In this document: positions 1-42,344 of the stretch, in pieces | Position numbering within the stretch: the stretch's first letter is position 1 | How the letters are laid out: every line of letters starts with the position of its first letter | IMG/VR virus record: IMGVR_UViG_3300033417_000023 | Coordinates: 1 to 42,344 of that record | Source: a virus | Lineage: Duplodnaviria > Caudoviricetes | Length of the DNA: 42,344 nt | Strand: one strand, 5' to 3' | Made by a program: the position numbers and the translations under genes | The notes under the pieces: generated by a model | The model's input: only the letters and a program-made list of their open reading frames with translations | Database searches by the model: none | What the model was told of the DNA's origin: nothing

Positions 1-1
1 A

Positions 2-469
2 CAACGAGGCGCGCGCCTCGTTGTGCCGCACGAGCAGGTAGTGCTGAACCGGGCCGACCCGGTAGGTCTCGCGTTCGATGGTCGCCATGATGGTGTTTCC
101 TCGCAGGAGATAGTGCCCGTCCGTCGCGGGGATGCGGTAGCTGACCGAGTTGAGGTTGCTGACCACGAGGTTGCCCACCTCGAGCGCGGGCATGGTGGAC
201 GCTTTGCTGAACTGGGCGCGCGCCTGGTAGTAGGCCTGGGGCGACAAGTGGGCCTTGAGCTCGTCGAGCCACAGCGCGCCACCGGGGCCAACGGGCTTGC
301 CCGGGCCCACCTCGAGCACGCGGGAGACGAACATGCGATCCCGCGCCGCCTCTCCGGTGATGCGGTAGTCGGTGCTCGCGATGAGGCTGGAGCCAGCCGA
401 GAAGTGGAGCTGCTGCTCGAATTCGGTATCTTCGCAGACCCGAACGAAGTCCTGGCAAACGCGCCTCAT
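2..469 (-). CDS. GroES/Cpn10-like co-chaperonin, probably tandem domains, truncated at window edge
   Basis: Not in the ORF track. ATG at 469 overlaps the scaffold stop (ATGA). Hand translation MRRVCQDFVRV...SRVLEVGPGK...ALEVGNLVV...YLLRGNTIMATIE matches GroES landmarks (GxVLAVGxG, VKVGDxV, LxxxDILAI); then RVGPVQHYLLVR resembles the start of a second GroES unit. Confidence 0.6.
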   Translation of the reverse strand, partial: MRRVCQDFVRVCEDTEFEQQLHFSAGSSLIASTDYRITGEAARDRMFVSRVLEVGPGKPVGPGGALWLDELKAHLSPQAYYQARAQFSKASTMPALEVGNLVVSNLNSVSYRIPATDGHYLLRGNTIMATIERETYRVGPVQHYLLVRHNEARASL

Positions 470-3718: not shown

Positions 3719-5269
3719 GTGCTCATCGAACCTGACGCGGCGGCTCTGGAAACGGCGCTGCTTTCCAGCCGTCTCCCGTCCGGGGATGACTCCGCCTGGC
3801 AACGCATCTACCGGGACTTACACCCGAAGCAGCGTCGCGCGCTGGACGACCTGGACAACCGCAAGTGCATCCCGAAGGGGCGCCGCGGGGGCGGATCCTA
3901 CTGGGTGGCGGCCTGGCTCCTGGAAGACTTTCAGCTGTGGCCCGGGCAGACCTCGCTGTTCCTGGCGCTGAGCAAGGAGCACGCCAAGGCGATTCTGTGG
4001 AGCACGCTCGAGGAGTTTAACTCCAAGTATTCGCTCGGGGCGGGTTCCGACGGCAAAGAGTACAGCTGGACCTACCCGAACGGCTACCGGATCCTGTTCA
4101 GCGGGTCGAAGGACAAGGCCCAAGTGGAGCGCCTCCGCGGCGTCTCCCCCCACGGGCTGCGCCGCTGCGCGATCGACGAGTCGGGGTCGTTCGGGGCGTA
4201 CGACCTGCAATTCCGGTACATGATCTCGTCGGTCATCGTCCCGCAATTCACCGACACCCATCACCTCGGGGGCGGGCAGCTGGCGCTCATCGGCAGCCCA
4301 GGCGTGGATCCGGCCGGGCTCTACTACGAGCGGTGCACCGGGCGGACTCACGACGGCAAAGAGGCGCTGCAGTGGAGCACACACCGGTGGACGGCGCTCG
4401 ACAACCCGGCGATTGACGCGGCGGGTTACCTGCTCGAGGAGCTGGTCAACGGGGAGCACATCCTCGACGACACGCCGGCCTCGACCATCGTCGAATGGCT
4501 GGTCGCGCTCAAAGACGTCGAGCTTGACGACGAGCGATGGGCGCCGATCCTGGCGCGGCTCAGCGCGGAGTTTCGCCGGGAGTACCTCGCTGACTGGTGC
4601 AAAGACTCCGACTCCCTGGTGTACCTGCCCACTGAAGGGAACTACCTGGACGACGGCTACGAGCTCGACGAGGGCACGCCCTGGCGCGTGGTGGTCTCGG
4701 GAGACATCGGGTGGGGGGACGGCAACGGTTTCGCCGTGGCCGCCAAGTCGCTCCGGTCGAGGACCATCGTCCTGCTCGAGGCGTACTACCTGCCCGAGCT
4801 CAACGACGAGGAGATTGCGAACGAGCTCAAGCGCCTGAAAGCGGCCTACCGCGCCGGGGAGGTCTATATCGATTGCGCGGGCGAGGGGCAGCGGCTGCTC
4901 GCCAACATGGCCCACTTCGGGTTGCACTGCGAGGCGCAAGGCAAGGGCAAGAAGAAGCCGCGGATCGAGTACCTGCGCACGGTTATCGCCAACCGGTCGC
5001 TGCAGATCCGGCGGGACAAGTGCGCCGCGGTGCTGACCGAGTGGAGCGCGCTGCCGTGGAGCGCCGACCGTCAGAACCACCGCGAGTGGTTCGTGGACGA
5101 CGTGAGCGACGCGGTGCTCGGCGCCGTCAACCCGCTCAGCCAGCGCTTTCAGCCCGGCAAGGGGCTGCCCCCGAAGAAGGGGGAGCCGGGCTACGCGGCG
5201 CACCAGGCGAAGCTCGAACGGGCATCCGCCAACCGGCGCGGCCGGCGCATGGCGCGCAGCCGGACCTGA
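3719..5269 (+). CDS. terL: terminase large subunit
   Basis: LHPKQ adenine-binding motif, Walker A-like KGRRGGGS, Walker B CAIDE, coupling motif GSP, DNP...FRREYLA, RNase H-like nuclease acidic residues (SGDIGWGD, YID, DDVSDA). Confidence 0.9.
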   Translation: MLIEPDAAALETALLSSRLPSGDDSAWQRIYRDLHPKQRRALDDLDNRKCIPKGRRGGGSYWVAAWLLEDFQLWPGQTSLFLALSKEHAKAILWSTLEEFNSKYSLGAGSDGKEYSWTYPNGYRILFSGSKDKAQVERLRGVSPHGLRRCAIDESGSFGAYDLQFRYMISSVIVPQFTDTHHLGGGQLALIGSPGVDPAGLYYERCTGRTHDGKEALQWSTHRWTALDNPAIDAAGYLLEELVNGEHILDDTPASTIVEWLVALKDVELDDERWAPILARLSAEFRREYLADWCKDSDSLVYLPTEGNYLDDGYELDEGTPWRVVVSGDIGWGDGNGFAVAAKSLRSRTIVLLEAYYLPELNDEEIANELKRLKAAYRAGEVYIDCAGEGQRLLANMAHFGLHCEAQGKGKKKPRIEYLRTVIANRSLQIRRDKCAAVLTEWSALPWSADRQNHREWFVDDVSDAVLGAVNPLSQRFQPGKGLPPKKGEPGYAAHQAKLERASANRRGRRMARSRT

Positions 5270-7248: not shown

Positions 7249-8955
7249 CTACGACAGTACCATGGTCACGGAGCCGACGCGGCTGAGTCTTAGCGACACG
7301 GATCCGACGCTGGCCAGCGCCAGCTCACACGAGCCCACGGCGCCGATCCGAAGGCGGACGCTGCCCGGTGGGTCTAGGGGAAGGGCCACCAGCCCCGAGG
7401 CGTCCAGGCCACCGAGCTCCACCGCGCCGGACACCTGGACCAGCACCTCGACGGTTCCCGTGGCGTCCACGCCGGCGACAGAAACCGCCCCCGAGGCGTT
7501 CCGGTTGATGGCCACCACGGTTCCCGCGGCGTCGAGGCCAGCCAGCTGAGGCGAGCCCGAGACGCCCACATCCACCTCGACGATGCCCGCAGCATCGAGG
7601 CCCGCCAGGTCCACTGCGCCGCTGGCACCGGCGTGCGCCTCGACTGTACCCGCCGCGTCCAGGCCTGCCAGGTCGACCGCGCCGCTGGCACTCACATCCA
7701 CCGTGACGGTGCCCGCCGCGTCGACGCCCGCGACGTCCACCTCGCCCGAGACGAGGGTCTGGTCTTGCGTGGCCAGGTTGCCCGAGGCGTCCAGGCCACC
7801 GAGCTCCACCGCGCCCGATACGCTCACCTCCACGGTGACGGTACCCGCCGCGTCCAGGCCCGCCAGGTCGACCGCGCCGCTGGCGTCGTGCTCTGTCGTG
7901 ACGGTTCCGGCGGCGTCCACGCCAGCGAGCTCCGCCGCGCCGCTCGCCGCCAGGTTGGTGGCCACGACCGTGCCGGAGGCGTCCAGCCCTGCCAGGTCAA
8001 CGGCGCCCGAGGCGCTGGCCTCGACCGTGACGCTGCCCGCCGCATCGACGCCGCCAACATCCACGGCGCCCGAGACGGCGCGATTGATGGCCACGACGGT
8101 GCCCGCCGCGTCCACGCCGGCCACCTCCGCGGCGCCGCTCGAGTCCAGCACCGAGCCGAGCAGGCCGTCAATGCTGGTGACGACGATGTCCACGGCGCCG
8201 TCGGCGCTCGCCTCGACCTCGACGGTTCCTGCTGCGTCGACTCCCGCAACGTTCACCGCGCCGTCTGCGTTGGACTCGATGATCGAGTCAGGGACAGCAA
8301 TCGCGACCGCTGCTGCACGGTTGATCGTCCCGCTGAAGATGTGAGTCGTTACCTCGGTGCCAGCCGCCGCTGGCTCTTCGGTGGAGCCGCAATGCCCGCT
8401 CGAGGAAAGGTTCTGATCCCATCGCTCGGTTTGCCCTGTGCCGTGCGTCCAGGTGCCCGCATTGCCGCATGACGCGGAGCTCAGGACCAGCGAGTCGTCG
8501 TCGGCGACCTCGACCGACAGGCTCGGGTCAGTATCCGCCGTGACCTGGAAGAGCACGACGTCGGACACGTTCGCGGCCTGCGAGGCGTCCTGGACGACGA
8601 CGACCGAGACCGCGCCCTGATCCTGCTCCGGGCTGATCGTTGCGGTAACCGTGTGGCTGCTGCCGTCAGCGGGGAGGTCGTCCTCCAAGATCTCGTAGAT
8701 CTTGGTCCATATGCTGAAGCCGCCGCTCGTCGCGTGGGCTGCGGCGTTCACCGAGCCATCAGTGACGAGCGTTGCGGTTACGCCTCCGAAGGTCGGTCCC
8801 GCCGTGACGCTCGGGTTATCGGCTGCGCCGTCCTCGCCCTGGAGCACGACGAACAACCGGCGGTTCGTGCCGGCGCTCAGCGTGAACGAGGAAAGGCTGA
8901 TCGCCGTGAACGCGCCCGTCAGCTGGCGCGAGTCTGTCGATAGGTGGCCGGCCAT
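7249..8955 (-). CDS. repeat-containing fibre/adhesin-like virion protein
   Basis: 568 aa: about 225-aa beta-rich N-terminal domain, then about 14 repeats of SGAVDLAGLDAAGTV; acidic, Ala/Gly/Val-rich. Confidence 0.65.
   Translation of the reverse strand: MAGHLSTDSRQLTGAFTAISLSSFTLSAGTNRRLFVVLQGEDGAADNPSVTAGPTFGGVTATLVTDGSVNAAAHATSGGFSIWTKIYEILEDDLPADGSSHTVTATISPEQDQGAVSVVVVQDASQAANVSDVVLFQVTADTDPSLSVEVADDDSLVLSSASCGNAGTWTHGTGQTERWDQNLSSSGHCGSTEEPAAAGTEVTTHIFSGTINRAAAVAIAVPDSIIESNADGAVNVAGVDAAGTVEVEASADGAVDIVVTSIDGLLGSVLDSSGAAEVAGVDAAGTVVAINRAVSGAVDVGGVDAAGSVTVEASASGAVDLAGLDASGTVVATNLAASGAAELAGVDAAGTVTTEHDASGAVDLAGLDAAGTVTVEVSVSGAVELGGLDASGNLATQDQTLVSGEVDVAGVDAAGTVTVDVSASGAVDLAGLDAAGTVEAHAGASGAVDLAGLDAAGIVEVDVGVSGSPQLAGLDAAGTVVAINRNASGAVSVAGVDATGTVEVLVQVSGAVELGGLDASGLVALPLDPPGSVRLRIGAVGSCELALASVGSVSLRLSRVGSVTMVLS
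7375..8275 (-). repeat. coding tandem repeat, about 14 units of 63-69 bp
   Basis: 21-23 aa unit [AV]SGAVD[LV]AG[LV]DA[AS]GTV. Confidence 0.85.
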
Positions 8956-11383: not shown

Positions 11384-11695
11384 TTATGGGTTCTTGGCAA
11401 CGGTACCGTCGTCAGACCAGCCCGCAACCACGGTGAGGGCTGCGTCGCTGATCGCGCCCACCGACGCAAAGTCGCCGTCCAGCTCGATATACGTCTCGAT
11501 GGGCACCGTGATCGTGAAGTCGGTTCCGTCGCCGCCGTCCAAGACGACCGTTTGGGCAGTGGTCTCATGGCTGTTCATGAGCAGCACCGTGCTGGCCCGC
11601 ATGCCGAGCGGCAGCCCCGTGATGGTCGCGAGGTTAGTCGATGCCGCGACGTTGCGACGGATGTTGATTCGCCCGCCTCCTGCTGCTTTGCTCAC
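11384..11695 (-). CDS. hypothetical virion protein
   Basis: 103 aa; GTGA overlap with the 1811-aa gene. Confidence 0.65.
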   Translation of the reverse strand: MSKAAGGGRINIRRNVAASTNLATITGLPLGMRASTVLLMNSHETTAQTVVLDGGDGTDFTITVPIETYIELDGDFASVGAISDAALTVVAGWSDDGTVAKNP

Positions 11696-14600
11696 ATGGA
11701 CCTTTCCGCCGCGATCGAGCCGAGGCGAGTTGCTAACCGGGTGGATGATGACCCACCACCCCCAGAATTTCCACCCCCCGTTTCCCGGGCGGCCTGGTCC
11801 GCCGCCGCCTGCTGGTCGATGGCGGCCAGGATATGCCCCGTCATTGCGGGGCTCTGCATGCCGTCCAGGGCCCCGTCAAAGGCCAGGGTGCGGTCGAGGT
11901 AGCTGAGGCGCTCCGGGTCGAGCCCGCCGCCGTCTTCGGCCATCCTGGTGACCACGCCAGCCACACCCACCCGGACCTCGTTCCACAGGGGCTGCCAGGT
12001 CGCCGCGAAGGCCTCGACTGCGGGCGGGGGGGCAGTGCCCCGCCCGATCGCTTTGATGGTCGCCCTGGGCTGCGTGGTGCCCCGCACGCGTGCGCTCCAG
12101 TCCAGCAGCTCATCGTGGGTCGGGGGCAGCCCATCCGGGCGGCTCATGCTCCGCGCCACGGGCTGTGGGCGCACGGACGACAGGTAGGCGACCATCTGCG
12201 CCGCCTGCTGCACCAGGGCCCCGTAGACGCTCGGGTGGGTCCGGGACAGCTCGCCCGTCGATGCCGCCACCCGCTCGATGAGCGCCCTCGGGTCGGCGAT
12301 CAGCTCGTCCAGGGTCTTGCCCAGCGCGAGCGCCGCTTCCGCCGTCAGGGGCACGTCCTCGCGCAGCTTGCTGTCCGAGCGGTTCGGGCGCCGGGTGCCG
12401 ACGAGCTCAGCCACCGCCGCGGCGATCTCAGCCCGCCCGCCTCGAGCGTTCTCGACCATCGCGCGGCTGTAGGCCACCTCTGGGGGCAGCGCGTCGGGGG
12501 GAGGGCGGGGCGGCTCCTCCGCGGCTTGCGCGTCGCCGCCGAACGAGAGGAAGAGCGCGGTGCTGAGGATCGGAATGATACCCTTGACCGCGATAATGCG
12601 CTGTTGCATTGCCTCCGCCTGGCGCTTGACGGCCTCCGGCGATAGCGATGGGTGATGCGCGCGGATGAAGCCCTCCGGGCCGCCCATGCCGTCGATGACC
12701 GCCACGGCCTCGTCAAAGCCCTGCTGCACGACTGAGCGGAGCTGCCCCTTGTTCGGCGCGTAGCTGGCCAACAGCTCGTGGGGAGCGACCGAGCCAACCT
12801 GCTTGAACATGTTTTTTGCGGTGTTGACGTTGCCTCGCCCCTTGCCCTGCGAGACGGTGCGCTGGATGGCCGCAGAGGTCTGCTCGTAGTCGTTGGCGAA
12901 TGGCGAGTTTGCGCCAGCCTCGCCAGCGTCGACCATCAGCGTGGTTTTGCCGTCCGTCATGACGTTGCGCGCGTTGAGTTGCACGTCCCAATTGCCGAGA
13001 ATGATGTCCTTCGGAACCGTGCGCGCGTAGCTGTCGCGCACCGACTGGGGCAGCGTGGACCAGTCCTCGACTGCGTTTAGCTCGCGCCACTCCGGGCCGA
13101 GCCACTCGCTCGCCATGGCCTTGATGCCTGGGGTGTCGCTGGGGGTAAACGGCTCCATGGATCCCCACTCGGGGCCGGGGGTGACCATCTCGTGCTTGAT
13201 GTTGGGCAGGTCAATCTCGACCCACTCGGGTGTTCCTACTCCGAGCGCGCGGTACATGCGCGCGTTGCCGACCTCGATCGCGTTGTGGATGGGGTCCGCG
13301 TCGGCCTTCACGTAGCGGATTTTCCCGTCTTTCCCGCGGAAGAAACCGCCCTCCGTCTTGCCGAGTCTTCCGCTTAGGCGCTCGCTCAGGATGCCGTCAT
13401 GTGCTACACTTCCCACATGGGGCGTAAAGACATCGTTGGTGATCGGCGGGAGTTTGCTCGGGAGCCCGCCGCGAGATGGGACGGGGCTTGGAGCTTGACG
13501 CCCGGTAAACGGGGCAAGGTCTTCCTTGGCTCCCCCGACCGCACGTTCAATGTCCACTGCCTGGCTCGGGAGTTTTTTGCTGGGCTGGAGCAAGGCCCGG
13601 GCACTGGCCGCGTCGGTGGGGATGACACCTCCGAGTGACGCCTCGGCAATGGGGATCTCGCCCTCGTAGATCGGCTTCTTGCCCGGCGCGCGCTTGCCAT
13701 TGAAAACCTGACCATAGACGGTCGCCCTCCCCTGCTCGCGAGCGACCATGAGCCGGTGGCGTCCGTCACGGAGCAGCGGGCCCTTCGGGCCCATCTCGAT
13801 CTGTATGCCCTGCTCGACCTGCCCGGCCTGGTCAACGCGACCAGTCGCCCCGAAGTCGCGCGCGAAGTCGCCCCGCCCGCCCTTGCCCGTGCGCAGCGCC
13901 TCGAGCGTCTCCGGCTTGAACGAGCCCGGGTCGTCGAGCGCGCCGAGGTCCCGCAGGCTCTTGCCGGTCAGGTCGACGGGTGACTGCTTGCCAGCTGCTT
14001 TAGCCGCAGCCTTGCGCCCGCCCCTGCCCGCCAGCAGCGCAAGAGCTCCAGCGCTTGCCCCCATGGCGCCGCTCTCGTCGCCGGGTGCCAGGGCTGCCCC
14101 GAGCCCGAGTAGCCCGGACAGCACGAACCCCACTGGGGCGGCGCCCTTGGGGGCGGCTCGTAGCGTGACCTCGATGTGGCCGAACAACTTGCTTTCACTG
14201 CGCGCCACGTCCACGACCTCGAACGTCGCGCCCGGGGGCAAAAGCGCCTCCCGCTCGGACGACCCATATTGCTTCGAAAACCCTGCCGCCGAGAGTGGGG
14301 ATGCACGCTCGACCTTCTCGAACTTGAGCACCACGGGAACGTGCCCCATCTCACGCGCGCGTGCCGTGTCCGCGAACATGTCCTTTGCGTAGAACGCATC
14401 GAACGACGTGCTGGTAAGCTCGCCCGTCTCGACCGTCTGGGCGTTGACGAGGCGGGTCGCGTCTTCGGGCCTGAGGCTGAGACCGCGCCAGAGCGGACCC
14501 ACGGACTCGGTCAGACCCGAGCGCATCAGCTTCTCGGTGGCGCTCTCGAACGCCTCTAGCGAGTCGGCAAACCGCTCCTTGCCGGGTATGGGCGTGCCCT

Positions 14601-17127
14601 GCTGCAGCGCCCGGAACGCGGCGGCGCCACCGCCCTCGATATAGTCGAGGAGCGCCAGCTGCTCGTCGGGCTGCAAAGCCTTGATGTCTGCGCCGGTCTT
14701 GCGCGCTAGCGAGATGAGCGCCTTGCTGTTCGTGGGGATGGTGTCGAGACCACCGTGCGTGACCTTGCTAAAGCCTGCCTTGCGATCGACACGCGCCATG
14801 GCCAGCTCTGTGGCTGCGTCGTCGATCGCGGGCTTTACTTTGGGCGTGTCGATGCTGGCTTGGTATTCGTAGCGCGCGGTCCCTTGCGCGTAGCCCTTGT
14901 CGTTGATCGCGAAGGGGCGCCCGTCCGCCGTAACCCCGAGCCGGCTGGCATCGAACTCGCGTTCCATGCGGCCATTGCGCACCGGCACCTTGGCGTCGCG
15001 TAGCAACGTGTAGAGGTGCTCCTTGCCAGTCTCGCTCAGCTCCTTGGATATCTCGCGCTCAGTCTTGTAGCCCGACAGGCGACGCGCCACCTTGCGTCCG
15101 CCTCTGCCCGCCAGCAAAGCCAACGCGCCCGCGCTAGCTCCCATGGCGCCGCTCTCATCGTCTGGCGCCGCCGCTGCCCCAGCGAACAACGCGCCTGCTG
15201 CCACCTTGCCGCCGTGCTCACGGAGCGCGTTCTGCATCCACTCGGAGTAGTTCCGGCTGATGCTGGCCTCCGCCAAGTCGGGGTGCTTGGCGTAGCGACT
15301 GAGCCCGCGATCCCACACATCGGCGAGCCGCGTGCCGGCGGTGAGGCGCGTGCCTTCGGCGATGCGCCCCAGGTTGCGCGCCGCGCTGACTGCCCCGCCA
15401 ACGACGGGCGCCTGCGAGCCGATGTCGGCAATGAGGTTGGCCCACTTCTGCGGGTCGCGCCGCGCGTGCGCTGCTTTGTTCTTCGCGACACCGATCGTGC
15501 TCGCGAGGTTCCAATCCTCTTTGAGCGAGCGAATGTCGCCCGCCAGGTTGTCGAGGTTGTCCATGCGCGACAAGCCCCAGCGCTGGCGCGCCTCGACCAT
15601 GTTGGTCAAGCCGTCGTAGGCCTTGGCCAGGTGGCGCTGGAGCTCGACGTTCAGGCGCGGGTCTTCGCTCAGCGCCGACAGCGCCTTGCGCGTGGTGCCC
15701 TCCTTGACGATGCGCCCAGCGCCCGCGTGGTTGTAAAGCGTCTCGCCGGTCTTATCGAGGAACGTCTCCTCGACCTTGCGCCAGCTCTTGAGCAGCTGCG
15801 TCCAGCCCGCGTTCAGCTCCTTGTTGAGATGCGCGTTCCGCCCGAACTTGACCGGGTCCATGAGGCCCGTGCGGATGTCCTCCTGCAGCGGCTCAATCAG
15901 ATCCTTGAGCGCGGCGCGCGTGGGGTTGTCGATGCCGAACGAGGCGTCGATCTTGACCACCTGCTTTTGCAGGTCACGCTTGAAGTTGTCCGCCAGGTAG
16001 TTGCGGCGTGCGCTGTTGGGCGAGTTGGCGATCTGCCGCGTGTAGTCGTCGATGGTCTTGAGCGCGACCTTGCCCGCGTTGCCGTAGTCGATCGCGTCGA
16101 TGTCGCCCTTGGGCTTGCGGCGCAGCTCTTCGGCGACGCGCGCGCCCTTCTCTTCGAGGTCCACGAACCACTTCGCCTGAAGCGTCTCGGTGCCCGCGTC
16201 CCACTCCTTGGCGCCTTTCTCGAAGTCCTGGTATTTGACTGCGTTGCCCAAGTCCTCGTCGAGGCCGCGATAGAGGCGCGTGAAGCTGTCCGCGCTGTGG
16301 GTCGAGATGAGCTTGTAGTAGTCGTCCGAATCGCGATCGAGAATGACCGCGTCCCGGTCGCTCATCTCCTTGATGGCGGGCTCAAAAGCGTCGTCGAGGT
16401 CGCTGGCGCGCGCCGCGCCCACGCTGCCCGGGCGCTCGCCGATGGGGCCCGCCTTCTTGCGAAGCACCTCGTTCGCCTCGCTGACGATGTTGCGCGAGCC
16501 GCCCCCGAAGATGCTCGACAGCCCCTTTCCCACCCCGCGAAACAGCACGTCACCCAGGGCAAACATGCCCGTGTAGGTCGCGACGTTCTTGAGCTCGGCG
16601 GGTCGCTCCTCCAGCCACGCATTCTCGCCCTCCTGCGCCACGGCCTCGATGGCCGCCTCCGTGCCGATGGCCGCCGCGGTGCCCGCCAGCCCCGCGCCGA
16701 CCGCGCCAGCCGCAAGCGCTCCGCCCGCCAGCGCCACGGGGGTAGCCGTTGCGAGCTGGCCCGCCATGGCGCTGAACGGGTGAGCCTCCGCTCGCAGCCG
16801 CGCCTCGTCGCCGAAAGCATCCGGGAAGGCCTGCTCGGCAGAGCTCGTGCCCTCCCCCTCGAGCCCGGCGGGAACGGGCGCGCTAAGGCCAGTCGCGTCG
16901 CCGATGAGCCCCGCGGCGCGGCCCACCATGCGCTGCCCGCTCTCGAGCGCCGCTCGCCCGGAGAAGCCGCCCTCGTCAGCCGCCTTGACCGCCTCAGCCT
17001 GGTCGTGCTGGTCGAGGTCGCGTTGCGTCGCGGGCGCATAGCCCTGGCGCTGCAGCTCGGTCAGGTCTTCGGGGTGCGCGACGTCCGCCTCGACGAGGCG
17101 CCCCATCGAATCGACGAAGTAGGCCAC
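11692..17127 (-). CDS. large ejection/internal virion protein with ADP-ribosyltransferase, ParB-like and HipA/PI3K-like kinase domains (polyvalent protein)
   Basis: Third and largest gene after the nozzle, with Gly/Ala hydrophobic segments. ART R-S-E motifs LWRG / TSTS / EREALL; ParB-type LRDGRHRL; kinase motifs GGFF...YVK...E...GNWDV...N...VDAG. Confidence 0.8.
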   Translation of the reverse strand: MAYFVDSMGRLVEADVAHPEDLTELQRQGYAPATQRDLDQHDQAEAVKAADEGGFSGRAALESGQRMVGRAAGLIGDATGLSAPVPAGLEGEGTSSAEQAFPDAFGDEARLRAEAHPFSAMAGQLATATPVALAGGALAAGAVGAGLAGTAAAIGTEAAIEAVAQEGENAWLEERPAELKNVATYTGMFALGDVLFRGVGKGLSSIFGGGSRNIVSEANEVLRKKAGPIGERPGSVGAARASDLDDAFEPAIKEMSDRDAVILDRDSDDYYKLISTHSADSFTRLYRGLDEDLGNAVKYQDFEKGAKEWDAGTETLQAKWFVDLEEKGARVAEELRRKPKGDIDAIDYGNAGKVALKTIDDYTRQIANSPNSARRNYLADNFKRDLQKQVVKIDASFGIDNPTRAALKDLIEPLQEDIRTGLMDPVKFGRNAHLNKELNAGWTQLLKSWRKVEETFLDKTGETLYNHAGAGRIVKEGTTRKALSALSEDPRLNVELQRHLAKAYDGLTNMVEARQRWGLSRMDNLDNLAGDIRSLKEDWNLASTIGVAKNKAAHARRDPQKWANLIADIGSQAPVVGGAVSAARNLGRIAEGTRLTAGTRLADVWDRGLSRYAKHPDLAEASISRNYSEWMQNALREHGGKVAAGALFAGAAAAPDDESGAMGASAGALALLAGRGGRKVARRLSGYKTEREISKELSETGKEHLYTLLRDAKVPVRNGRMEREFDASRLGVTADGRPFAINDKGYAQGTARYEYQASIDTPKVKPAIDDAATELAMARVDRKAGFSKVTHGGLDTIPTNSKALISLARKTGADIKALQPDEQLALLDYIEGGGAAAFRALQQGTPIPGKERFADSLEAFESATEKLMRSGLTESVGPLWRGLSLRPEDATRLVNAQTVETGELTSTSFDAFYAKDMFADTARAREMGHVPVVLKFEKVERASPLSAAGFSKQYGSSEREALLPPGATFEVVDVARSESKLFGHIEVTLRAAPKGAAPVGFVLSGLLGLGAALAPGDESGAMGASAGALALLAGRGGRKAAAKAAGKQSPVDLTGKSLRDLGALDDPGSFKPETLEALRTGKGGRGDFARDFGATGRVDQAGQVEQGIQIEMGPKGPLLRDGRHRLMVAREQGRATVYGQVFNGKRAPGKKPIYEGEIPIAEASLGGVIPTDAASARALLQPSKKLPSQAVDIERAVGGAKEDLAPFTGRQAPSPVPSRGGLPSKLPPITNDVFTPHVGSVAHDGILSERLSGRLGKTEGGFFRGKDGKIRYVKADADPIHNAIEVGNARMYRALGVGTPEWVEIDLPNIKHEMVTPGPEWGSMEPFTPSDTPGIKAMASEWLGPEWRELNAVEDWSTLPQSVRDSYARTVPKDIILGNWDVQLNARNVMTDGKTTLMVDAGEAGANSPFANDYEQTSAAIQRTVSQGKGRGNVNTAKNMFKQVGSVAPHELLASYAPNKGQLRSVVQQGFDEAVAVIDGMGGPEGFIRAHHPSLSPEAVKRQAEAMQQRIIAVKGIIPILSTALFLSFGGDAQAAEEPPRPPPDALPPEVAYSRAMVENARGGRAEIAAAVAELVGTRRPNRSDSKLREDVPLTAEAALALGKTLDELIADPRALIERVAASTGELSRTHPSVYGALVQQAAQMVAYLSSVRPQPVARSMSRPDGLPPTHDELLDWSARVRGTTQPRATIKAIGRGTAPPPAVEAFAATWQPLWNEVRVGVAGVVTRMAEDGGGLDPERLSYLDRTLAFDGALDGMQSPAMTGHILAAIDQQAAADQAARETGGGNSGGGGSSSTRLATRLGSIAAERSM
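14011..14079 (-). repeat. linker repeat copy 2 (DESGAMGASAGALALLAGRGGRK)
   Basis: Amino-acid identical to 15091..15159 and exactly 1080 bp away. Confidence 0.95.
15091..15159 (-). repeat. linker repeat copy 1 (DESGAMGASAGALALLAGRGGRK)
   Basis: 12 of 69 nt differ from copy 2, all synonymous. Confidence 0.95.
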
Positions 17128-17130
17128 GGG

Positions 17131-19266
17131 CTATCGCCCCCGATTCGTGGGGCCGGTGACAGGGCGGACGTTGACCCCGCCCGCGATCGGGAACTGGTTC
17201 TGTAGCTTCCACGCGGCCCGCACGGGCGCCTGGGTGGACGACTGCACCTCGGTGCGCCGCGCCTCAATCTCGCGCCGGAGCTCGGCCAGCTTCTTCGGCA
17301 CGTCCGCGTCCAGCGTCGGCTGGTCGATGCCCGCGTACTCGTCTTGCTTGGGCGCGCTGTTGGGCTCGCTCTTCCAGCCCATGCGCGAATTGAGCTCCAC
17401 GGCGGTCCACGCCTGGCGGAGCGAGCGCGCCTTGGCGGCCGCGTCGTCGTCGCCGATCTCGTCGAAAGCATCGAATGGGTCGTAGCCCGTGGCGCTGCTC
17501 ACGTAGTCGGCGTCCTTGGGGTAGTTGCCCGCGGAATCCGGCTGGACGCCGTATGCCTGCTCCAGCGTGGCGAGGTCGCGCTCGAGCTGCCCCACCAGCG
17601 ACATGCCGGTTCCCATCTGCTTGAGCTGCTGTACGTGCGCGGGGTTGCGCGTGTCGAACTTCGCCGCCAGCGCGGCGCGCGTTGCCGGGTCGCGATCTTC
17701 GGTGCCGACCGGCGCGAGCTCGGTGCCGACCACCGGTGCCTCGACGGGCTTTGGCGGCTGGTAGACGATGCTGAGGCGCTGGTTCTCGCGGTCCACCAGG
17801 CCCTGCGCGAGCTGCTGCCCTTCGGCCATAATCTCTGCGGACGCGGCCAGCGCTTGCGCCTGAATGTCCGCGTTGTCGATCTGCGTGCGCGCCAGGTTGT
17901 CCACGCGCTTGGCGGTGACGATGCGCTGCTCTGCCCGCGCTGCGTCCACGCCGCTATCCGCGTTGTTGAGCACGCGCGTCCAGTGGGCGACGCGGTTCTC
18001 CTTGGAGCGCTCGCCGCGGTTGAGCGCGTCCTTCTGCGCGTCCACGTCCGCGTCTAGCGCCTGGTTTAGCATGTCGATCGCGGGGTTGCGCGCGCCCTTC
18101 GCTCCGCCAGTGACGAGCAAGCCTTGGCTGATGCCTCCAAGGATGAGCGCGATCGATCCCATGACGATGTCCCCGGTGCTCATGTTCTTGATGAGTCGGA
18201 TGGGGTCGACCTTGCCGACAGGCTCCGCGAAAGTCTCTTGGATCTTCTTGTTGGCCGCGTTGCGCACGGCGGTCTCGTGCTGGATGCGATAGGCCGCATC
18301 CTGCTCGAAGCGCTGCGCCTGCGCGTCAACCTCTGCCATGGCCTCGTTGCGCCCTGCCACGCGGCTTTGCGCGGCGTTCTGCACGAATGCCGCCTGCACG
18401 TTGGTGCTGTCCATGGTCTGCTGCTGGCGCTGGCGAACTTGCTCGGGGGTGAGCGGGACGCCTTGCGTAGTGACTTGCGCCGGCAGCATGCCGGGGATCT
18501 GTGGGATGACCGGGCCCGTCGCGCGGGGCTGACCTTGTGCGACGCGGGATAGCAGGCTGCCCGGGTCAGCCGTGGCGGTCTCTTCGCGCGAGCCCACGGT
18601 CGCGCCCGACTCCTGGCGAGCCATGGCTTGCGCCAGCTTGTCGCGGGGCACCTCCGAGAGCGGGGTGTCCGCTGACACGCCGGTGAAGCCCGCCACGTTG
18701 CTCGTGTAGCGCGCCACGTCGTTCTCGAACTCGGGCGCGTACTTGCCGATGAAGCTCCCGAGCGTGTGCCCGCGCTGCGCGTCCAGCTCAATCTGGCGCT
18801 CGAGCGCGGAGTAGCCGGCCTCCGGCGTCTCGAACTTGGCCCAGCTGCCCCCGCCCTTCTTGTCCTCGCCCCTCGTGGCGCCAGCCTGCCCCGCAAACAT
18901 CAGGTTGCCCGGGTTGTTGTGTACGTAGGCGATGCGGCTCGCCTCGGGGATGTTGATGCCCTGTTGCGGCTCGGCGCCTGGGGTCGACATGGCTTCCGTC
19001 TGGCGTTGCACGACGTCCGGCGTGATGGGAGCCTGCGGCACGACGGGCTCGGGCTCGGGCTCGGGCACTGGGGGCGGGGCCATCTGCGCGCCCGACTCGG
19101 CTTGCCACTCGTTAGCCTTGCGCAAGTCCGCGATGCGGCTCGCCTCCACGGGGTCGTAGCCGTACGTGGGGGTGCCGTCCTCGTCGATGAACTCGCCGAT
19201 CCCCCAGGTCTCGTCGTCGTCCGGGTCGTAGATATCCGGGTCGGGCAAGAAGTCTGTGTAAGCCAC
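17131..19266 (-). CDS. internal virion/ejection protein with NNPGN lysozyme-like peptidoglycan hydrolase domain
   Basis: HNNPGNL...F.TPEAGY.AL...TL..FI.KYAP..END...Y...AMARQESG (about 18605-18935); later hydrophobic segment IVMGSIALILGGISQGLLV and coiled coil. Confidence 0.75.
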   Translation of the reverse strand: MAYTDFLPDPDIYDPDDDETWGIGEFIDEDGTPTYGYDPVEASRIADLRKANEWQAESGAQMAPPPVPEPEPEPVVPQAPITPDVVQRQTEAMSTPGAEPQQGINIPEASRIAYVHNNPGNLMFAGQAGATRGEDKKGGGSWAKFETPEAGYSALERQIELDAQRGHTLGSFIGKYAPEFENDVARYTSNVAGFTGVSADTPLSEVPRDKLAQAMARQESGATVGSREETATADPGSLLSRVAQGQPRATGPVIPQIPGMLPAQVTTQGVPLTPEQVRQRQQQTMDSTNVQAAFVQNAAQSRVAGRNEAMAEVDAQAQRFEQDAAYRIQHETAVRNAANKKIQETFAEPVGKVDPIRLIKNMSTGDIVMGSIALILGGISQGLLVTGGAKGARNPAIDMLNQALDADVDAQKDALNRGERSKENRVAHWTRVLNNADSGVDAARAEQRIVTAKRVDNLARTQIDNADIQAQALAASAEIMAEGQQLAQGLVDRENQRLSIVYQPPKPVEAPVVGTELAPVGTEDRDPATRAALAAKFDTRNPAHVQQLKQMGTGMSLVGQLERDLATLEQAYGVQPDSAGNYPKDADYVSSATGYDPFDAFDEIGDDDAAAKARSLRQAWTAVELNSRMGWKSEPNSAPKQDEYAGIDQPTLDADVPKKLAELRREIEARRTEVQSSTQAPVRAAWKLQNQFPIAGGVNVRPVTGPTNRGR

Positions 19267-21582
19267 TTAGACGGCCCCGGCGGCGCGCAGCTTGCGGTGA
19301 ATCATCGCCACTGCCGCCAGCGCCGCCATGCCCGCGCGCGCGTCGTCCACGCCAAGGAACCCGTCGGGTCTGCGGACGACCATCGTTCTACCGAGCCGCG
19401 ACTGCTGGAGGTCTTGCGCCATGCCGCCGAAGAAGCGTCCCGCACCATGCGCCGACGGGTCCGCATACTCGAAGGTCTGCGGCTCGAACAACTCGAGCAG
19501 CTCCTCGAGGTCCGCGTCCGTGGCGTCGGCAATCTCGACCTTGGCGGCGCGGTCGGAAGCTAGTGCCGCCTTGGTGCCGGCAGAGCTGATGCCGCCGATT
19601 GCGCCGCCGGCCGTGTTGACGGCCAGCTGCTCCAAGAACGTCGGCTGGGCGTTGATCTGGTCGATGGTGTTCTGCCGGCTTGTGTCGCTCGCTTGGTTGC
19701 CCAGCGTCAGCTGCACGTCCCGGTTGGCGCCCTGGTTGTAGGTGTTCTGCGCGATGTTCTCGCCGGTGAGTGCCTGGTCTCCCGCTCGCCCCAGGAAGTC
19801 GAGGCCCTGGCCCATGGCCTCGTTGCCGAGTCGGCCGTATCCGAGCTGGCCCTCGAGCGCGAGTTGTTGCGCTTGCAGAGCCCGGTCCGCGTCGCTGGTG
19901 AGCGCGTTGATGTCCTGCCCACGGATGGTCGCGTTGGTGCCGGCTAGGCCAAGCTCCTGGGTGACGTCCTGGCCGCGGGTGCCCAGCGCGGTCGCCTGGT
20001 TTCCCTGCAGCGCGCTGAGGTTCTGCCCGCGCATGCCGAGCTGCGCCGACTGGTCCGCGGTGAGCCCCTGTAGGTTCTGCCCGCGGGCGCCAAGCTGGGT
20101 GCTCTGGTCGCCCTGCAGCGCCGACAGGTCTTGCCCTCGGGTCGCGACGCTCGTGTTGGCGCGTAGCCCCTCGAGCCCCAGCCCCGTGCTCTGGTCGCCT
20201 TGTAGGGCGCTCAAGTCCTGCCCCCGGGCACCGAGTGCCGTCTGAGCGCGGAGGCCCTCCAGCGCCGTCCTCGTGCTCTGGTTGGCCATCGCCCCCGACA
20301 GGTCTTGACCACGGGTACCAAGCTGCGTCGACTGGTCTCCCTGCAACGCGCTGAGGTCTTGCCCGCGGAACGCCAGGTCTTGCCCGCGCATCGCCGTGCC
20401 AAGCTCGCCGCCGAGCCCGATGGCGCTCAGCTGGCGGTTCTTGAGCATGTCCTCCTCTTGCGCGCGGAGGGTGGCCATCTGCCCCATGGTGTCGGAGGCG
20501 ATGGCGCCGCCCTCGGAGATGGCTCCGCGGAGCGCTTGCGCCTGCGAGCCAGCGCCTCCACGCCCGGAGCGAGCCGCGCCGATGAGCGAGGCCATGTTGT
20601 CGGCCTGGCCCTGCTGCAACTGGGCCTCCGCGATGCTGGGGCCCTGGGGTCCATCGAGGAATCCCTCGAGCCGCCCCATCATGCCTTGCTGGTTCTGCGA
20701 GGACAGCCCCAGGTTACCGAGCTGCCCCGCCACGTTGGCAGGGCCGGCTCCCATCCGGATGTCCCCCACGTTGCCCACCTGGGGCGCCGCACCGAGCCTG
20801 CCAGCGACGTTGGCGACCCCGCCAACCTGGTAGCCGCCGCCGAGCTGGCCCGCCACGTTGCCCGGCGCTCCGCCGAGCTGACCCATCACGTTGTTGACTC
20901 CGCCGAGCGACCCCGGGTCCACGTTGCCCACCCCGGCGTGCTGCTGCGCCTGGTTCTGGTAACCCAGGTTGAAAGCTGGCTGCCCAGCAGGCGCGCCTCC
21001 ACCTCCACCCTGCGGCGCGCCGTTCAGGATGCCGGGATCCAGGAACCCGCCCGATCCGCCGCGCGGGGCTGGTGCCGGGGGCGCGCCGCCGTAGGTCTGC
21101 GCTCCGCCCGTGATGCTCGGCGCGGTCGTCTGGTAGCCGGCGCCGAGCTGCTGAAAGTTGGACGCCGTGCCAGCCTGCGAGTCGTAGACGTTGCCGCCAC
21201 GAACGGCCATGGCCTCGCCGAGCCCGCGCGCGTTGTCCATCTGCCCGGAGCGGGACGCGGCGTACGCTGCTTGCGTCGCCGCTGTGGGCGCCCCTCCGTA
21301 GCCCTGTGGCGCGTTGGCTGGCGCCTGCGTCGAGGCCGTGGTCGGCAGCTGGCCCAGCTGCATGAACTGGTTCTGCTGCTGGTCCGTCCGCGGCGCGGCT
21401 TGCGCGGCAGCAATCTCGGCCGGCGTGCGCGGGTCCACGATGCCAGCGTTGGCGGCCTGGTCATACTGCTGCGTAGACGTCGCAGCGTTCTTCAGGATCT
21501 TTTTGAATGTGCCGCCGCCGCTCGGCGCCGGCTGCGACACGCCTCCCGCGTCCAAGTTGTATCGATCGAGCCTGCTCGTCAT
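19267..21582 (-). CDS. Gly/Gln-rich ejection (DNA pilot-like) protein with C-terminal peptidase S74 autocleaving chaperone
   Basis: RGQDLSALQGDQST repeats; C-terminal SDRAAK...FEY...GGMAQDLQ...V...DG matches the S74 intramolecular chaperone pattern. Confidence 0.7.
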   Translation of the reverse strand: MTSRLDRYNLDAGGVSQPAPSGGGTFKKILKNAATSTQQYDQAANAGIVDPRTPAEIAAAQAAPRTDQQQNQFMQLGQLPTTASTQAPANAPQGYGGAPTAATQAAYAASRSGQMDNARGLGEAMAVRGGNVYDSQAGTASNFQQLGAGYQTTAPSITGGAQTYGGAPPAPAPRGGSGGFLDPGILNGAPQGGGGGAPAGQPAFNLGYQNQAQQHAGVGNVDPGSLGGVNNVMGQLGGAPGNVAGQLGGGYQVGGVANVAGRLGAAPQVGNVGDIRMGAGPANVAGQLGNLGLSSQNQQGMMGRLEGFLDGPQGPSIAEAQLQQGQADNMASLIGAARSGRGGAGSQAQALRGAISEGGAIASDTMGQMATLRAQEEDMLKNRQLSAIGLGGELGTAMRGQDLAFRGQDLSALQGDQSTQLGTRGQDLSGAMANQSTRTALEGLRAQTALGARGQDLSALQGDQSTGLGLEGLRANTSVATRGQDLSALQGDQSTQLGARGQNLQGLTADQSAQLGMRGQNLSALQGNQATALGTRGQDVTQELGLAGTNATIRGQDINALTSDADRALQAQQLALEGQLGYGRLGNEAMGQGLDFLGRAGDQALTGENIAQNTYNQGANRDVQLTLGNQASDTSRQNTIDQINAQPTFLEQLAVNTAGGAIGGISSAGTKAALASDRAAKVEIADATDADLEELLELFEPQTFEYADPSAHGAGRFFGGMAQDLQQSRLGRTMVVRRPDGFLGVDDARAGMAALAAVAMIHRKLRAAGAV

Positions 21583-39391: not shown

Positions 39392-40479
39392 CCAACCTGG
39401 TAACCATCCGCTGCTCGTCGCTGCCCATCGCCTTCAAGTGCCCCGGCGCGGTGCGACCGGCGGAGGTGCTCATCAACCCGACGAGCGACGCGGCCGAGAT
39501 GGGTACGGCCGCGCACGAGGTCTTGGCGGCGATGGTGCTGACCGGGTCCGTCGACTGGGATCTGGTCGGCGAGATCTCGCGCGTCAACGGCGTGGACCGC
39601 GCCGAGCTCGGGATGCTCGTGGCCAACGGCGCCAAGCTGTGGGAGCAGGTCAAGGGCAGCTTCCCCGAGCCTGACGTCGAGGTCGAGCTAGAGCACGGAA
39701 AGCTCACGGGGCACGCGGACATCATCGGGCACAGCCCACACGCGGTGCATGTTGGCGACTGGAAGACGGGCCACAAGGATGGGGACTACTCGCACCAGCT
39801 GCGCGGCTACGCGCTGCTGGCCCTCGCCGCGGACCCTGACGCGAAGTCCGCTACGGCATCGGTGCTGTGGGTGAGAGACGGGGAGGTCGAGCACTACGAG
39901 ATGACGCGCGCGGAGGCGGCCGACTGGGAGCGCCGGCTGCACGGCTCGGTCATCAATTGGGATGGCACCTACCGCCCCGGCTCGCATTGCGCGCACTGTC
40001 CGCGCAACCACGAGTGTCCCGCGGTCAACGCGATGGTGCGGCGCGACGTGGCGTGGATCGCCAACCTCGACGTAACGGAAGCGCTGGCACGACGGACGCC
40101 GCAAGAGAAGGTCGCGCTACTCGAGGTGGCCGACCACGTGGCAAAGGTGGCCGCGCGCGTCCGTGATGCTCTAAAGTCGGAGGTGCTCACGGGCGGCGAT
40201 ATCGTCGGCGAAGAGAAGTACCTCACGATCGTCTCCGAAGAGCGCCGCATGGTCGACACGCTGGCCGCGTTTCCGGTGCTGGAGGCCGCGGAGTTTGACG
40301 ATAAGGACTTCGCGGCGTGCATCACCATCAGTGGCAGCAAAGCCAAAGACGTGGTAGCGAAGCGAGCTGGCCGGGGGAAGGGTGCTGCGGCCGTGAGAGA
40401 GCTGGATGCGGCTCTCGATGCGGCGGGCGCGTACACGACGACGACGATCGAAAAACTAACTATCAAGAGGGTAACATGA
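39388..40479 (+). CDS. Cas4-like PD-(D/E)xK exonuclease
   Basis: CPG, GT.AH, E...GHAD...DWKTG, QLRGY, CxxCP...C (four-Cys Fe-S staple pattern); adjacent to recT. Confidence 0.85.
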   Translation: MTNLVTIRCSSLPIAFKCPGAVRPAEVLINPTSDAAEMGTAAHEVLAAMVLTGSVDWDLVGEISRVNGVDRAELGMLVANGAKLWEQVKGSFPEPDVEVELEHGKLTGHADIIGHSPHAVHVGDWKTGHKDGDYSHQLRGYALLALAADPDAKSATASVLWVRDGEVEHYEMTRAEAADWERRLHGSVINWDGTYRPGSHCAHCPRNHECPAVNAMVRRDVAWIANLDVTEALARRTPQEKVALLEVADHVAKVAARVRDALKSEVLTGGDIVGEEKYLTIVSEERRMVDTLAAFPVLEAAEFDDKDFAACITISGSKAKDVVAKRAGRGKGAAAVRELDAALDAAGAYTTTTIEKLTIKRVT

Positions 40480-41591
40480 GCGAACTAGCGAAGCGTGACG
40501 CGGGCCTGCTGGGCCTGCTCGAAAAGATGAAGCCGGCCATCGCGCAAGCGCTGCCCAAACACATATCGGCGGAGCGTATGGCGCGCATCGCCATGACCGC
40601 TGTGAGGTCCAACGCGCAGCTCGCGAAGTGCTCGCCGGTATCGTTCCTGGGTAGCCTGCTGCAGGCCAGTCAGCTCGGTCTCGAGGTGAACACGCCGCTC
40701 GGGCACGCCTACCTGATCCCATACAAAGACGTGGCAACCCTGGTCATCGGCTACCAGGGGATGCTTGACCTGGCGCGGCGCAGCGGGCTGGTCAAAGCCA
40801 TCTACGCGCACCCGGTCTTCGAGGGCGACGAGTTTGACTACGAGCTCGGCTTGGAACCCAAGCTCCGGCACAAGCCGAAGGAGCAGAGCGACGTCTTGAC
40901 GCACGTCTACGCCGTGGCGCGGCTGCTCACCGGTGAGCCAATCTTCACCGTGCTCACCCGAGCTAAAGTCGAGACATTCCGCGCGCGCTCGCGCGCCTCC
41001 GGGTCCGGGCCATGGGTGACGGACTTCGATGCGATGGCTATGAAGACGGCTGTGCGTAGGTTGTGGAGCTGGCTGCCAAAGAGCGCCGAGCAGGCGGTAG
41101 CGCAGCGCCTTGACGAGGCGCTAGAACGGGACGTTGACCAGCGCGAGCAATTCTCACCCGAGGTGCAAAGCGTGCTGGACACAGTATCCGAGGCGCCGGA
41201 GCCGACCCCAGCGCCCTCCCCCGTGCCCACCGGAACACCCGAGGGGCGCCGGGTGAAGATGCCCGGGCGGGCCAAGCCAGCGCCAGCAGCGGCAACTCCC
41301 GCCGGTGATCAGCCTAAGCAGGCGGATTCGTGGGGCAAAGCCCCAGAAACACCCGCTCCGTCGATCACCCCGCCACCCGTGGACGTGGCCGAGCTGCACC
41401 AGGCGCTCGGGGAGGTCGACCCCGACTGGGAGAGCGTGGGCACGGCGCGGATCGTCGACTGGAGCCAGGAACAGCAGCGCGCCGCCCTGCACTGGGCGCG
41501 AGCCGTGCTGCTGAACGCGCCGGGCACGATGAGCATCCAGGCGAACCGGCCGCCGTTTACGGTGCTCGGTCGCCAGCCGGGGGAGGACTGA
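40476..41591 (+). CDS. recT: RecT single-strand annealing protein with C-terminal extension
   Basis: ALPKH...QLGLE...GHAYLIPY...IGYQGMLDLARRSG, PW.TDFDAMA.KT..RRL...LPKS. Confidence 0.92.
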   Translation: MSELAKRDAGLLGLLEKMKPAIAQALPKHISAERMARIAMTAVRSNAQLAKCSPVSFLGSLLQASQLGLEVNTPLGHAYLIPYKDVATLVIGYQGMLDLARRSGLVKAIYAHPVFEGDEFDYELGLEPKLRHKPKEQSDVLTHVYAVARLLTGEPIFTVLTRAKVETFRARSRASGSGPWVTDFDAMAMKTAVRRLWSWLPKSAEQAVAQRLDEALERDVDQREQFSPEVQSVLDTVSEAPEPTPAPSPVPTGTPEGRRVKMPGRAKPAPAAATPAGDQPKQADSWGKAPETPAPSITPPPVDVAELHQALGEVDPDWESVGTARIVDWSQEQQRAALHWARAVLLNAPGTMSIQANRPPFTVLGRQPGED

Positions 41592-41848: not shown

Positions 41849-42148
41849 ATGGCAACCAAGAAGAAGACAGCCCGCAGAATCGTTCTCGTGCGCTCGCGTG
41901 ACTCCGGTGTCTGGATGGGTGTGTTTCGTGGCTACCACGGATCTGGCGAGGTGACGTTGTCCAGCGCGCGCAAGATCTGGCGATGGCGCGGAGCGCATAC
42001 TACGAGCGAGCTAGCCCTACACGGATGCGTGCCCGAGTACTCGCGCGTAGCGGAGCCCGTTGACACGACCGTCTACGGGTGCTGTGAAATGATTGAGAGC
42101 AACGAGGCGGCCTTCGCCGCCGTGAACGCTTGCGGGTGGGCACCGTGA
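41849..42148 (+). CDS. conserved phage protein (DUF6948-like)
   Basis: GGAG RBS; VLVRS..SGVW.G...ARKIWRW.GA...SELA..G pattern. Family name is recalled, not searched. Confidence 0.6.
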   Translation: MATKKKTARRIVLVRSRDSGVWMGVFRGYHGSGEVTLSSARKIWRWRGAHTTSELALHGCVPEYSRVAEPVDTTVYGCCEMIESNEAAFAAVNACGWAP

Positions 42149-42344
42149 ACGGGTACGGGTACGGGGACGGGGACGGGTCCGGGTCCGGGTCCGGGTACGG
42201 GTACGGGTACGGGTACGGGGACGGGTACGGGTACGGGGACGGGTACGGGGACGGGTCCGGGTCCGGGTCCGGGTACGGGTACGGGGACGGGTCCGGGTAC
42301 GGGTACGGGTACGGGTACGGGGACGGGTACGGGTACGGGGACGG
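42145..42344 (+). CDS. Gly-X (GY/GD/GS) repeat protein, truncated
   Basis: GTGA overlap; MNGYGYGDGDGSGSGSGY... stays open to the window end. Confidence 0.6.
   Translation, partial: MNGYGYGDGDGSGSGSGYGYGYGYGDGYGYGDGYGDGSGSGSGYGYGDGSGYGYGYGYGDGYGYGD
42151..42344 (+). repeat. hexamer tandem repeat GGG(TAC/GAC/TCC)
   Basis: 32 complete units up to the window end. Confidence 0.95.

Follow-up and report, generated by a model that had tools for sequence, protein, structure and literature searches.

Alt, one of the internal head proteins of phage T4, is an injected ADP-ribosyltransferase (ART) that is released from a precursor when the phage head protease gp21 cuts after Glu. The procoat of phage M13 is built of an apolar leader, an acidic periplasmic loop, a second helix, and a basic tail, and is cut by leader peptidase. 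Polyvalent proteins, according to the main text of their description, are large multi-domain virion proteins with effectors such as ART and ParB-like domains, which are proposed to enter by injection and then be cut to give active pieces, with release ascribed to built-in peptidase domains (PMC5512222). MuF polymorphic toxins are virion proteins with exchangeable toxin domains, including ARTs, that are proposed to enter with the DNA, and the available text on them also mentions injection of the T4 ART (PMC5576092). The T7 gp16 and P22 ejection proteins have predicted membrane helices, and P22 gp20 possibly needs cleavage by a host enzyme (PMC8954989). In eukaryotes, host signal peptidase parts pestivirus-type polyproteins at internal membrane segments, co-translationally (PMC8002126). 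Here we analyze a DNA stretch of 42,344 nucleotides (hereafter, the window; positions 1 to 42,344 of IMG/VR record IMGVR_UViG_3300033417_000023; Duplodnaviria, Caudoviricetes), which is a GC-rich phage contig from an uncultured podophage-like genome. Its protein P0001 is encoded by an open reading frame on the minus strand (11692-17127) and carries a 23-residue repeat, the two copies of which are identical in protein, lie 1080 bp (i.e. 360 codons) apart, and flank an ART cassette.

Like T4 Alt, P0001 would bring an injected ART out of a precursor, but no protease of the gp21 kind is recognized here. The repeat belongs to a predicted hairpin that resembles M13 procoat in build, with the difference that procoat is a small N-terminal precursor made in the cell and the hairpin is an internal, repeated module of a tailed-phage protein. 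From its genomic position, P0001 is likely the last ejection protein of a short-tailed phage: its gene comes after those for a 978 amino acid (aa) protein in the putative tail-tube position, a 771-aa S74-domain protein, and a 711-aa transglycosylase-like protein, and this gene order, which corresponds to that of T7 gp16, is kept in related loci. Size and predicted membrane helices are further points of likeness to the T7 and P22 proteins, although the proposed link is one of position, and the available text on those proteins describes neither a variable cargo slot nor a signal-peptidase site (PMC8954989). The scaffolds of P0001 have no PHROG, Pfam, or PDB-sequence match. As in polyvalent proteins, several disparate effector domains (the ART and two motif-labelled domains) are held in one protein; by contrast, no peptidase domain is seen in P0001, whose junctions are predicted membrane segments with host-peptidase-like sites, and Pfam finds no LPD, MPTase, or other polyvalent marker domain in P0001 or in 35 relatives. 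The terms signal peptide, prepilin, and transmembrane do not occur in the main text on polyvalent proteins, the supplements to which may list this family (PMC5512222). MuF cargo is C-terminal, whereas that of P0001 is internal, between two scaffolds, with no MuF match, and neither cleavage nor signal peptide is mentioned in the available text on MuF toxins (PMC5576092). The resemblance to pestivirus-type polyproteins is one of analogy only. In the main texts of the open-licence literature, we found no report of an ejection protein being cut by signal or prepilin peptidases of the host.

We lean towards a reading of P0001 in which predicted hairpins separate swappable cargo in a likely ejection protein, and in which host inner-membrane peptidases would cut the junctions after injection, freeing the ART and other cargo on the cytoplasmic side. 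Seen directly are the repeat, the cargo slot, the exchange of cargo, the odd helix counts, the charge asymmetry, the two site motifs, and the tendency of these motifs to replace each other. Searches gathered a family of 97 distinct proteins (P0098, considered as a variant, was rejected as the same protein except for its first residue). Single-sequence scans of viral contigs with both scaffolds gave no match, while an alignment search gave 7 loci in viral contigs, with 6 more from metagenome contigs; one of these (L008) is the window's own contig and was left out as a relative. No relative was found in GTDB genomes or deposited phages. N- and C-terminal scaffolds bound a variable slot in 91 of the 97 proteins, the 6 that lack one scaffold being dropped, and 77 proteins were placed in trees (quick and FastTree) after 3 more were dropped for lack of the N bound. 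When cargo is classed by our own motif patterns, the treed proteins comprise 21 with an empty slot, 31 with ART, 9 with kinase-like, 6 with ParB-like, and 7 with other cargo, as well as 3 that hold several cargoes. At least 25 cargo changes are needed among these 77 scaffolds, and near-identical scaffolds can differ in both cargo and junction punctuation (P0016/P0027, P0077/P0090, and P0020/P0038). The swapping of cargo foreseen by the original prediction is seen in relatives, most of which exchange cargo without any repeat, and the repeat itself does mark the limits of slot cargo in the window protein. P0082 and P0083 are without the middle of the N scaffold, P0083 also without any junction helix, and in P0085 and P0088 a ParB-like cargo lies within the N scaffold, a second insertion site at which junction marks are not visible.

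The exact peptide is not what the family keeps. The original prediction took it for a recognition, processing, or topology signal under strong selection, yet the best ungapped match to the 23-mer among the 96 other proteins is 13/23, and a back-translated pattern of its first 12 codons has no match in viral contigs. The part of the claim that concerns processing or topology fares better, as the repeat with the segment before it has the build expected of such a signal, i.e. apolar segment, acidic loop, apolar segment, basic residues. Specifically, the repeat is predicted to be the second half of an inner-membrane hairpin, comprising its loop, return helix, and basic tail. The slot of 58 cargo-bearing proteins begins with a hairpin in 26, with a basic [QE]xG-apolar leader in 21 (two of these assignments look doubtful by eye), and with neither in 11. 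Hairpins follow one order, with Lys/Arg in front, two apolar segments parted by an acidic loop, and basic residues at the end: the 26 loops hold 74 D/E vs 15 K/R, and the ten residues past the return helix hold 81 K/R (26 of which are forced by the pattern) vs 20 D/E. In 66 of 80 proteins, the helix that closes the slot (the terminal helix) likewise has a more positive flank ahead of it than behind it. Apolar segments per slot, counted in 85 proteins once 6 with unreliable bounds were dropped, number 1 in 51, 3 in 22, 5 in 2, and an even figure in 10; as such, counts are odd in 75/85 (69/85 at a stricter threshold), which suggests that segments are added in pairs.

The origin of copy 2 can be read from relatives with the same ART cassette. 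In P0004 and L013, the end helix of the cassette passes via Ala-Ser-Ala↓Ala-Glu-Pro (arrows mark candidate cuts) straight into the C scaffold, which assigns the corresponding segment of the window (h3) to the cassette. P0001 differs in that the loop, return helix, and basic tail of junction 1 recur as a copy behind h3, with further cargo after them. Copy 2 thereby links the helix that ends the cassette to a return helix taken from junction 1, an arrangement that would keep the next cargo cytoplasmic. The sister protein P0002 is built likewise around another ART, where its own two copies agree at 14/23 residues, and the distant P0097 holds an ART between two hairpins, the first of them recognized by eye. 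More generally, multi-cargo proteins repeat their own mark, with two hairpins in P0001 and P0002 and repeated leaders in P0046, P0050, and P0096, and the identity of junction marks is 0.64 within proteins (5 pairs) vs 0.43 between them (131 pairs). Each added cargo therefore appears to bring a repeat of the protein's own junction mark.

Two kinds of candidate cut site accompany the terminal helix. Among 80 terminal helices (6 proteins without a helix and 5 in which the picked run is not the junction helix were left out), 47 have only Ala-x-Ala after the helix, 13 only [QE]xG before it, 7 both, and 13 neither (Fisher P = 7e-4). As controls, the Ala-x-Ala rule fires at 55/156 other apolar runs (35%) and at 41/1438 scaffold windows. 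Across the 54 Ala-x-Ala sites, position -2 is variable, +1 is Ala in 41, and +2 is Glu in 37; the free -2 with small residues at -3 and -1 fits the -3/-1 rule of signal peptidase I (PMC9360617). The regions of a signal peptidase I substrate (basic n, apolar h, and polar c with small -3/-1) are present at segment h5 and at the 54 of 80 terminal helices; h1 fits by eye. All candidate signal-peptidase sites are internal (aa 640-1536), so these are not classical N-terminal signal peptides, though they may work like one, and the charge asymmetry is compatible with exposure of the sites on the periplasmic face. Prepilins are cut after Gly ahead of an apolar tract, on the cytoplasmic side (PMC4471445). 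A prepilin-like leader with a long apolar tract (about 21 residues) is found in the cargo-free P0049, P0061, and P0080, while a spacer intervenes in others, and the window repeat, taken as a prepilin-type site, has 14 apolar residues and an acidic leader. The prepilin Glu at +5 is mostly Gly or Ser in 33 sites, and this Glu is reported to be dispensable for cleavage (PMC4471445). At its start, the repeat can be read by either site rule, with the two candidate cuts offset by a single residue (S-G-A↓M and E-S-G↓A).

Under the reading that we favor, the protein would be packaged and ejected into the host, being soluble in the producer cell because its segments are only marginally apolar, and would enter the inner membrane on ejection. 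Cargo-free forms would cross the membrane once, N side in and C side out, and would be cut either by signal peptidase I, behind the helix, or by a prepilin-type peptidase, in front of it, such that one helix and one host-peptidase site part the two scaffolds. A cargo would gain its upstream cut site either from a hairpin (out-helix, periplasmic acidic loop, return helix) or from a cytoplasmic [QE]xG leader, the hairpin being a module that is neutral in topology and places a periplasmic cut site ahead of cytoplasmic cargo. An ART with its own out-helix before a second cargo would need an added return helix, here copied from junction 1 as copy 2. The copies would then have drifted to synonymous saturation under purifying selection, and the overlap of the two site rules at the repeat start may add constraint. 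The ART, which needs NAD, would end up on the cytoplasmic side.

Several observations weigh against this reading. The segments are short, and their apolarity is marginal (summed insertion scale +2.0 to +3.4), most three-helix forms make up one clade, and the [QE]xG leaders at cargo starts precede only 4-5 apolar residues, vs 21 in a prepilin. The site patterns were defined after viewing the sequences, and when kinship is controlled for, the mutual exclusion of the two site types is borderline (6.5 vs 0.7 independent pairs, median P 0.07). Individual proteins also depart from the scheme: P0030 keeps an Ala-x-Ala site without a helix in front, the C scaffold directly follows a hairpin in P0055 and P0097, the helix scan returned none in P0071, P0087, and P0094, and seven kinase-type proteins have no clear start site, in addition to the 13/80 terminal helices with neither site type. 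About ten hairpin loops end in Q/E-A-G, which would be out of reach of a cytoplasm-facing peptidase if the loop is periplasmic, and at copy 2 there is no clean Ala-x-Ala after h3, where only S-G-A↓M fits. Finally, the copies in P0001 are more alike than the family requires, as the P0002 pair shows, and their identity is complete; the favored reading explains only in part why they stay so.

The chief rival, which we regard as somewhat unlikely, places the cut after [QE]xG at the time of particle maturation and ascribes it to a protease of the phage or to a soluble one of the host, with the apolar stretch being a leader or docking tag that the cut unmasks and the repeat a site plus tag copied with each cargo. 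Such a protease would suit a repeat that starts E-S-G followed by an apolar stretch, the many hairpin loops that end in Q/E-x-G, and the cargo-start leaders without a full membrane helix, and a lineage-specific reader of the site would account for identity within the genome; there is also precedent, given that polyvalent proteins are proposed to supply the peptidases that cut them and that P1 DdrB is cut before packaging, as stated in the main text on these proteins (PMC5512222). However, among the genes of the window and those scanned in L004, L006, L007, L009, and L013, some of them unnamed, no protease family besides the S74 chaperone domain was recognized, and the [QE]xG leader pattern that marks both cargo ends in L009 occurs neither in the L009 scaffold protein nor in the head genes of the window. 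Cleavage during maturation also leaves the odd helix counts, the charge asymmetry, and the Ala-x-Ala↓Ala-Glu sites (54/80) unexplained. Alternatively, the segments could serve, without being cut, as membrane anchors or as channel helices in the ejection conduit, in which case the repeat would do no more than hold cargo on the cytoplasmic side, and the motifs would be relics. The parity and charge data fit without any cutting, the Ala-x-Ala rule does fire after 35% of other apolar runs, and gp16-like proteins with predicted membrane helices insert into liposomes, according to the available text (PMC8954989). What is hard to explain without a protease is the kept Ala at -3 and -1, the free -2, the Ala-Glu at +1/+2, and the replacement by [QE]xG, and we consider this alternative unlikely.

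Two further explanations concern the DNA of the repeat. As the original prediction stated, the copies differ at 12/69 bases, spread over 11 codons, and every change is synonymous; its unchanged 14-nt core is present but is part of a longer identical run of 17 nt (15140-15156/14060-14076). Upstream of the repeat, 17 more codons are alike at about half identity. Along the lines of that prediction, the duplication would have been perfect and recent, with synonymous sites driven apart against RecT-mediated loss and the core left for in-frame exchange. We drew codons for the same peptide from four usage tables and find that random synonymous choice gives a mean of 13.9-15.2 differences; the 12 observed are at or below synonymous saturation, and recoding is not needed to explain them. 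Identical runs of at least 17 nt arise in 9-17% of the draws; the longest run, which recoding should have broken first, is longer than typical. The AT-richer codons noted earlier amount to a weak signal, with A/T third positions in 11/46 vs an expected 6.8 from the gene itself (P 0.07), 8.7 from the cargo region (P 0.24), and 5.1 from the scaffolds alone (P 0.01). There may be a weak trace of recoding in the copies, as their codon adaptation is slightly low (matched-null P 0.047 and 0.19) and that of the single hairpins of L004, L007, L011, and L013 is ordinary. A RecT is encoded in the genome as predicted, phage annealases work on DNA that is 78% identical, and a deletion would leave a hairpin plus kinase-like build resembling P0016; the 17-nt run is nevertheless shorter than the 23-27 nt that is the minimal pairing segment for Red-beta in the available text (PMC3945230). 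The 1080-bp deletion was seen in no read or contig, at a cover too thin to reveal it, as small shares of three sequencing runs gave scattered short pieces with no joint at the repeat. Given also that most relatives swap cargo in the absence of a repeat, recoding is the least supported part of the original prediction, and we judge it improbable.

The strong selection on the peptide that was also proposed holds within the window, where the copies have no changes in about 50 replacement sites at a synonymous divergence (pS) of 0.65, but not across homologs, which do not keep the exact peptide. Compared with L013, the same ART cassette has pS 0.50-0.56 and omega ~0.2, with the hairpin 54% identical and no identical run of more than 15 residues, so the repeat is held more tightly than the cassette between relatives; an omega of 0.05 would give P 0.02 for zero replacements, with the ends of the run picked post hoc. 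It is very improbable, in our view, that the kept 17-nt core is an internal translation start (at the Met in the repeat) that makes the cargo separately. The unchanged run does span the ATG and the 12 bases before it, and a Met lies nearby in copy 1 of P0002 and in P0053, but anti-Shine-Dalgarno pairing is weak (-3.4 and -3.0 kcal/mol, mid-range of 33 internal ATGs, vs -8.6 for the gene's own start), and most hairpins have no Met.

By modelled fold and residues, the window cassette is an R-S-E ART. The AlphaFold model of the domain (pLDDT 87) has an R-S-E (C2/C3-like) fold and matches R-S-E ARTs in Foldseek at E ~1e-8, with 146 PDB matches at E <1e-3, the top listed of which are all ARTs, and the family profile matches Vis (E 2e-19). 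The Arg, STS, and E-x-E motifs are in place (R881, S906-T-S908, and E958-R-E960), and the R and E are invariant across 29 aligned rows. Pfam gives no match on the window's own ART domain, phmmer with the ART alone missed PDB, and a two-row AlphaFold model of the whole cassette reaches a pLDDT of only 40. The other two cargoes, putatively ParB-like and kinase-like by their motifs, have no Pfam or PDB match; the kinase-like cargo has 12 relatives at E <1e-4, the best at 46-50%. A further cargo type in P0046, P0053, and P0096, presumably acetyltransferase-like from its motif, has no Pfam match. The features of the window protein and its context are given in Table 1.

Table 1. Features of P0001 and associated genes in the window (nucleotide positions of the window; aa, residues of P0001).
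Feature	Position	Strand	Remarks
P0001, 1811 aa, likely T7-gp16-like ejection protein with cargo slot	11692..17127	-	Last gene of tail-tube/ejection cluster; gene order kept in related loci; ejection role suggested by position
N-terminal scaffold, aa 1-640	15208..17127	-	Common to the family
Apolar segment h1, aa 641-655, preceded by Lys	15163..15207	-	Place and build match the one junction helix seen in relatives without cargo
Repeat copy 1, aa 657-679: acidic loop with candidate cut site, predicted return helix h2, basic RGGRK	15091..15159	-	
Unnamed domain, aa 680-800, travels with this ART	14728..15090	-	Identity 40% to P0004, 55% to L013
R-S-E ADP-ribosyltransferase fold (modelled): R881, S906-T-S908, E958-x-E960	14152..14700	-	
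Apolar segment h3, aa 999-1016, end helix belonging to ART cassette	14080..14133	-	Comparison with P0004 and L013
Repeat copy 2, aa 1017-1039: loop, predicted return helix h4, basic RGGRK	14011..14079	-	
Second cargo, ParB-like by DGRHR motif	13633..13986	-	73% identical to P0090 cargo; putative label, without library match
Third cargo, kinase-like: glycine-rich loop, Y-x-K, D-x5-N, D-A-G-E motifs	12592..13440	-	Putative label, without library match
Terminal apolar segment h5, Lys before, Ala-Gln-Ala↓Ala-Glu after: signal-peptidase-I-like site	12520..12591	-	
C-terminal scaffold, aa 1537-1811	11695..12519	-	Common to the family
711-aa neighbor, lysozyme/transglycosylase-like domain, likely ejection protein	17131..19266	-	Match to phrog_7182, tail injection transglycosylase
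RecT-family annealase, recombinase of the original prediction	40317..41591	+	PF03837, E 3e-44

The contigs of the family span 42-44 kb, and four of their genes were tested by tblastn against 50,697 deposited phages without finding a relative. Family-wide, the gene immediately behind the scaffold gene is GroES/Cpn10-like (about 240 aa); it lies at 1-469(-) in the window, where it is cut by the window edge, and at L009:18946-19674, L004:17717-18469, L007:20135-20836, and L013:19514-20221; two stretches match in L004 and L013. This conserved gene was considered as a protease candidate and rejected as GroES-like. The likely ejection protein encoded at 19267-21582(-) contains repeats of 18 residues (54 nt) and carries at its C-terminus an S74 intramolecular-chaperone domain, the sole peptidase-like domain seen. 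A 568-aa protein at 7249-8955(-) has 21-22-residue tandem repeats (63/66-nt period), with no library match and no counterpart in the related loci examined. The large terminase gene, at 3719-5269(+), is opposite in strand to the portal-position, scaffold, and ejection genes, as it is in relatives, and six-base tandem repeats at 42096-42344 form a Gly-Tyr/Asp/Ser low-complexity frame that lies behind a DUF6948 gene and reaches past the window end. In related loci, an integrase gene at L009:21274-22650 points to a temperate life style, and a 5'-3' exonuclease is fused in one frame to RecT at L013:20477-22447.

How tailed phages deliver and activate injected effectors is poorly known. It is possible, although we put this only tentatively, that a soil podophage family has an ejection polyprotein that uses signal peptidase I (through procoat-like hairpins) and prepilin peptidase (through [QE]xG leaders) interchangeably, remains inert in the producer, and releases its effectors only in the newly infected cell, as a bacterial counterpart of signalase-cut viral polyproteins. 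If true, essential host secretion peptidases would be the activators of phage cargo, such proteins could be read by a rule of helix pairs and two exchangeable site types, and the family would offer a natural modular delivery scaffold with empty, single-cargo, and multi-cargo alleles. Should the reading fail, the family would still exemplify, in clean form, polymorphic cargo held internally together with junction marks that a protein copies from itself.

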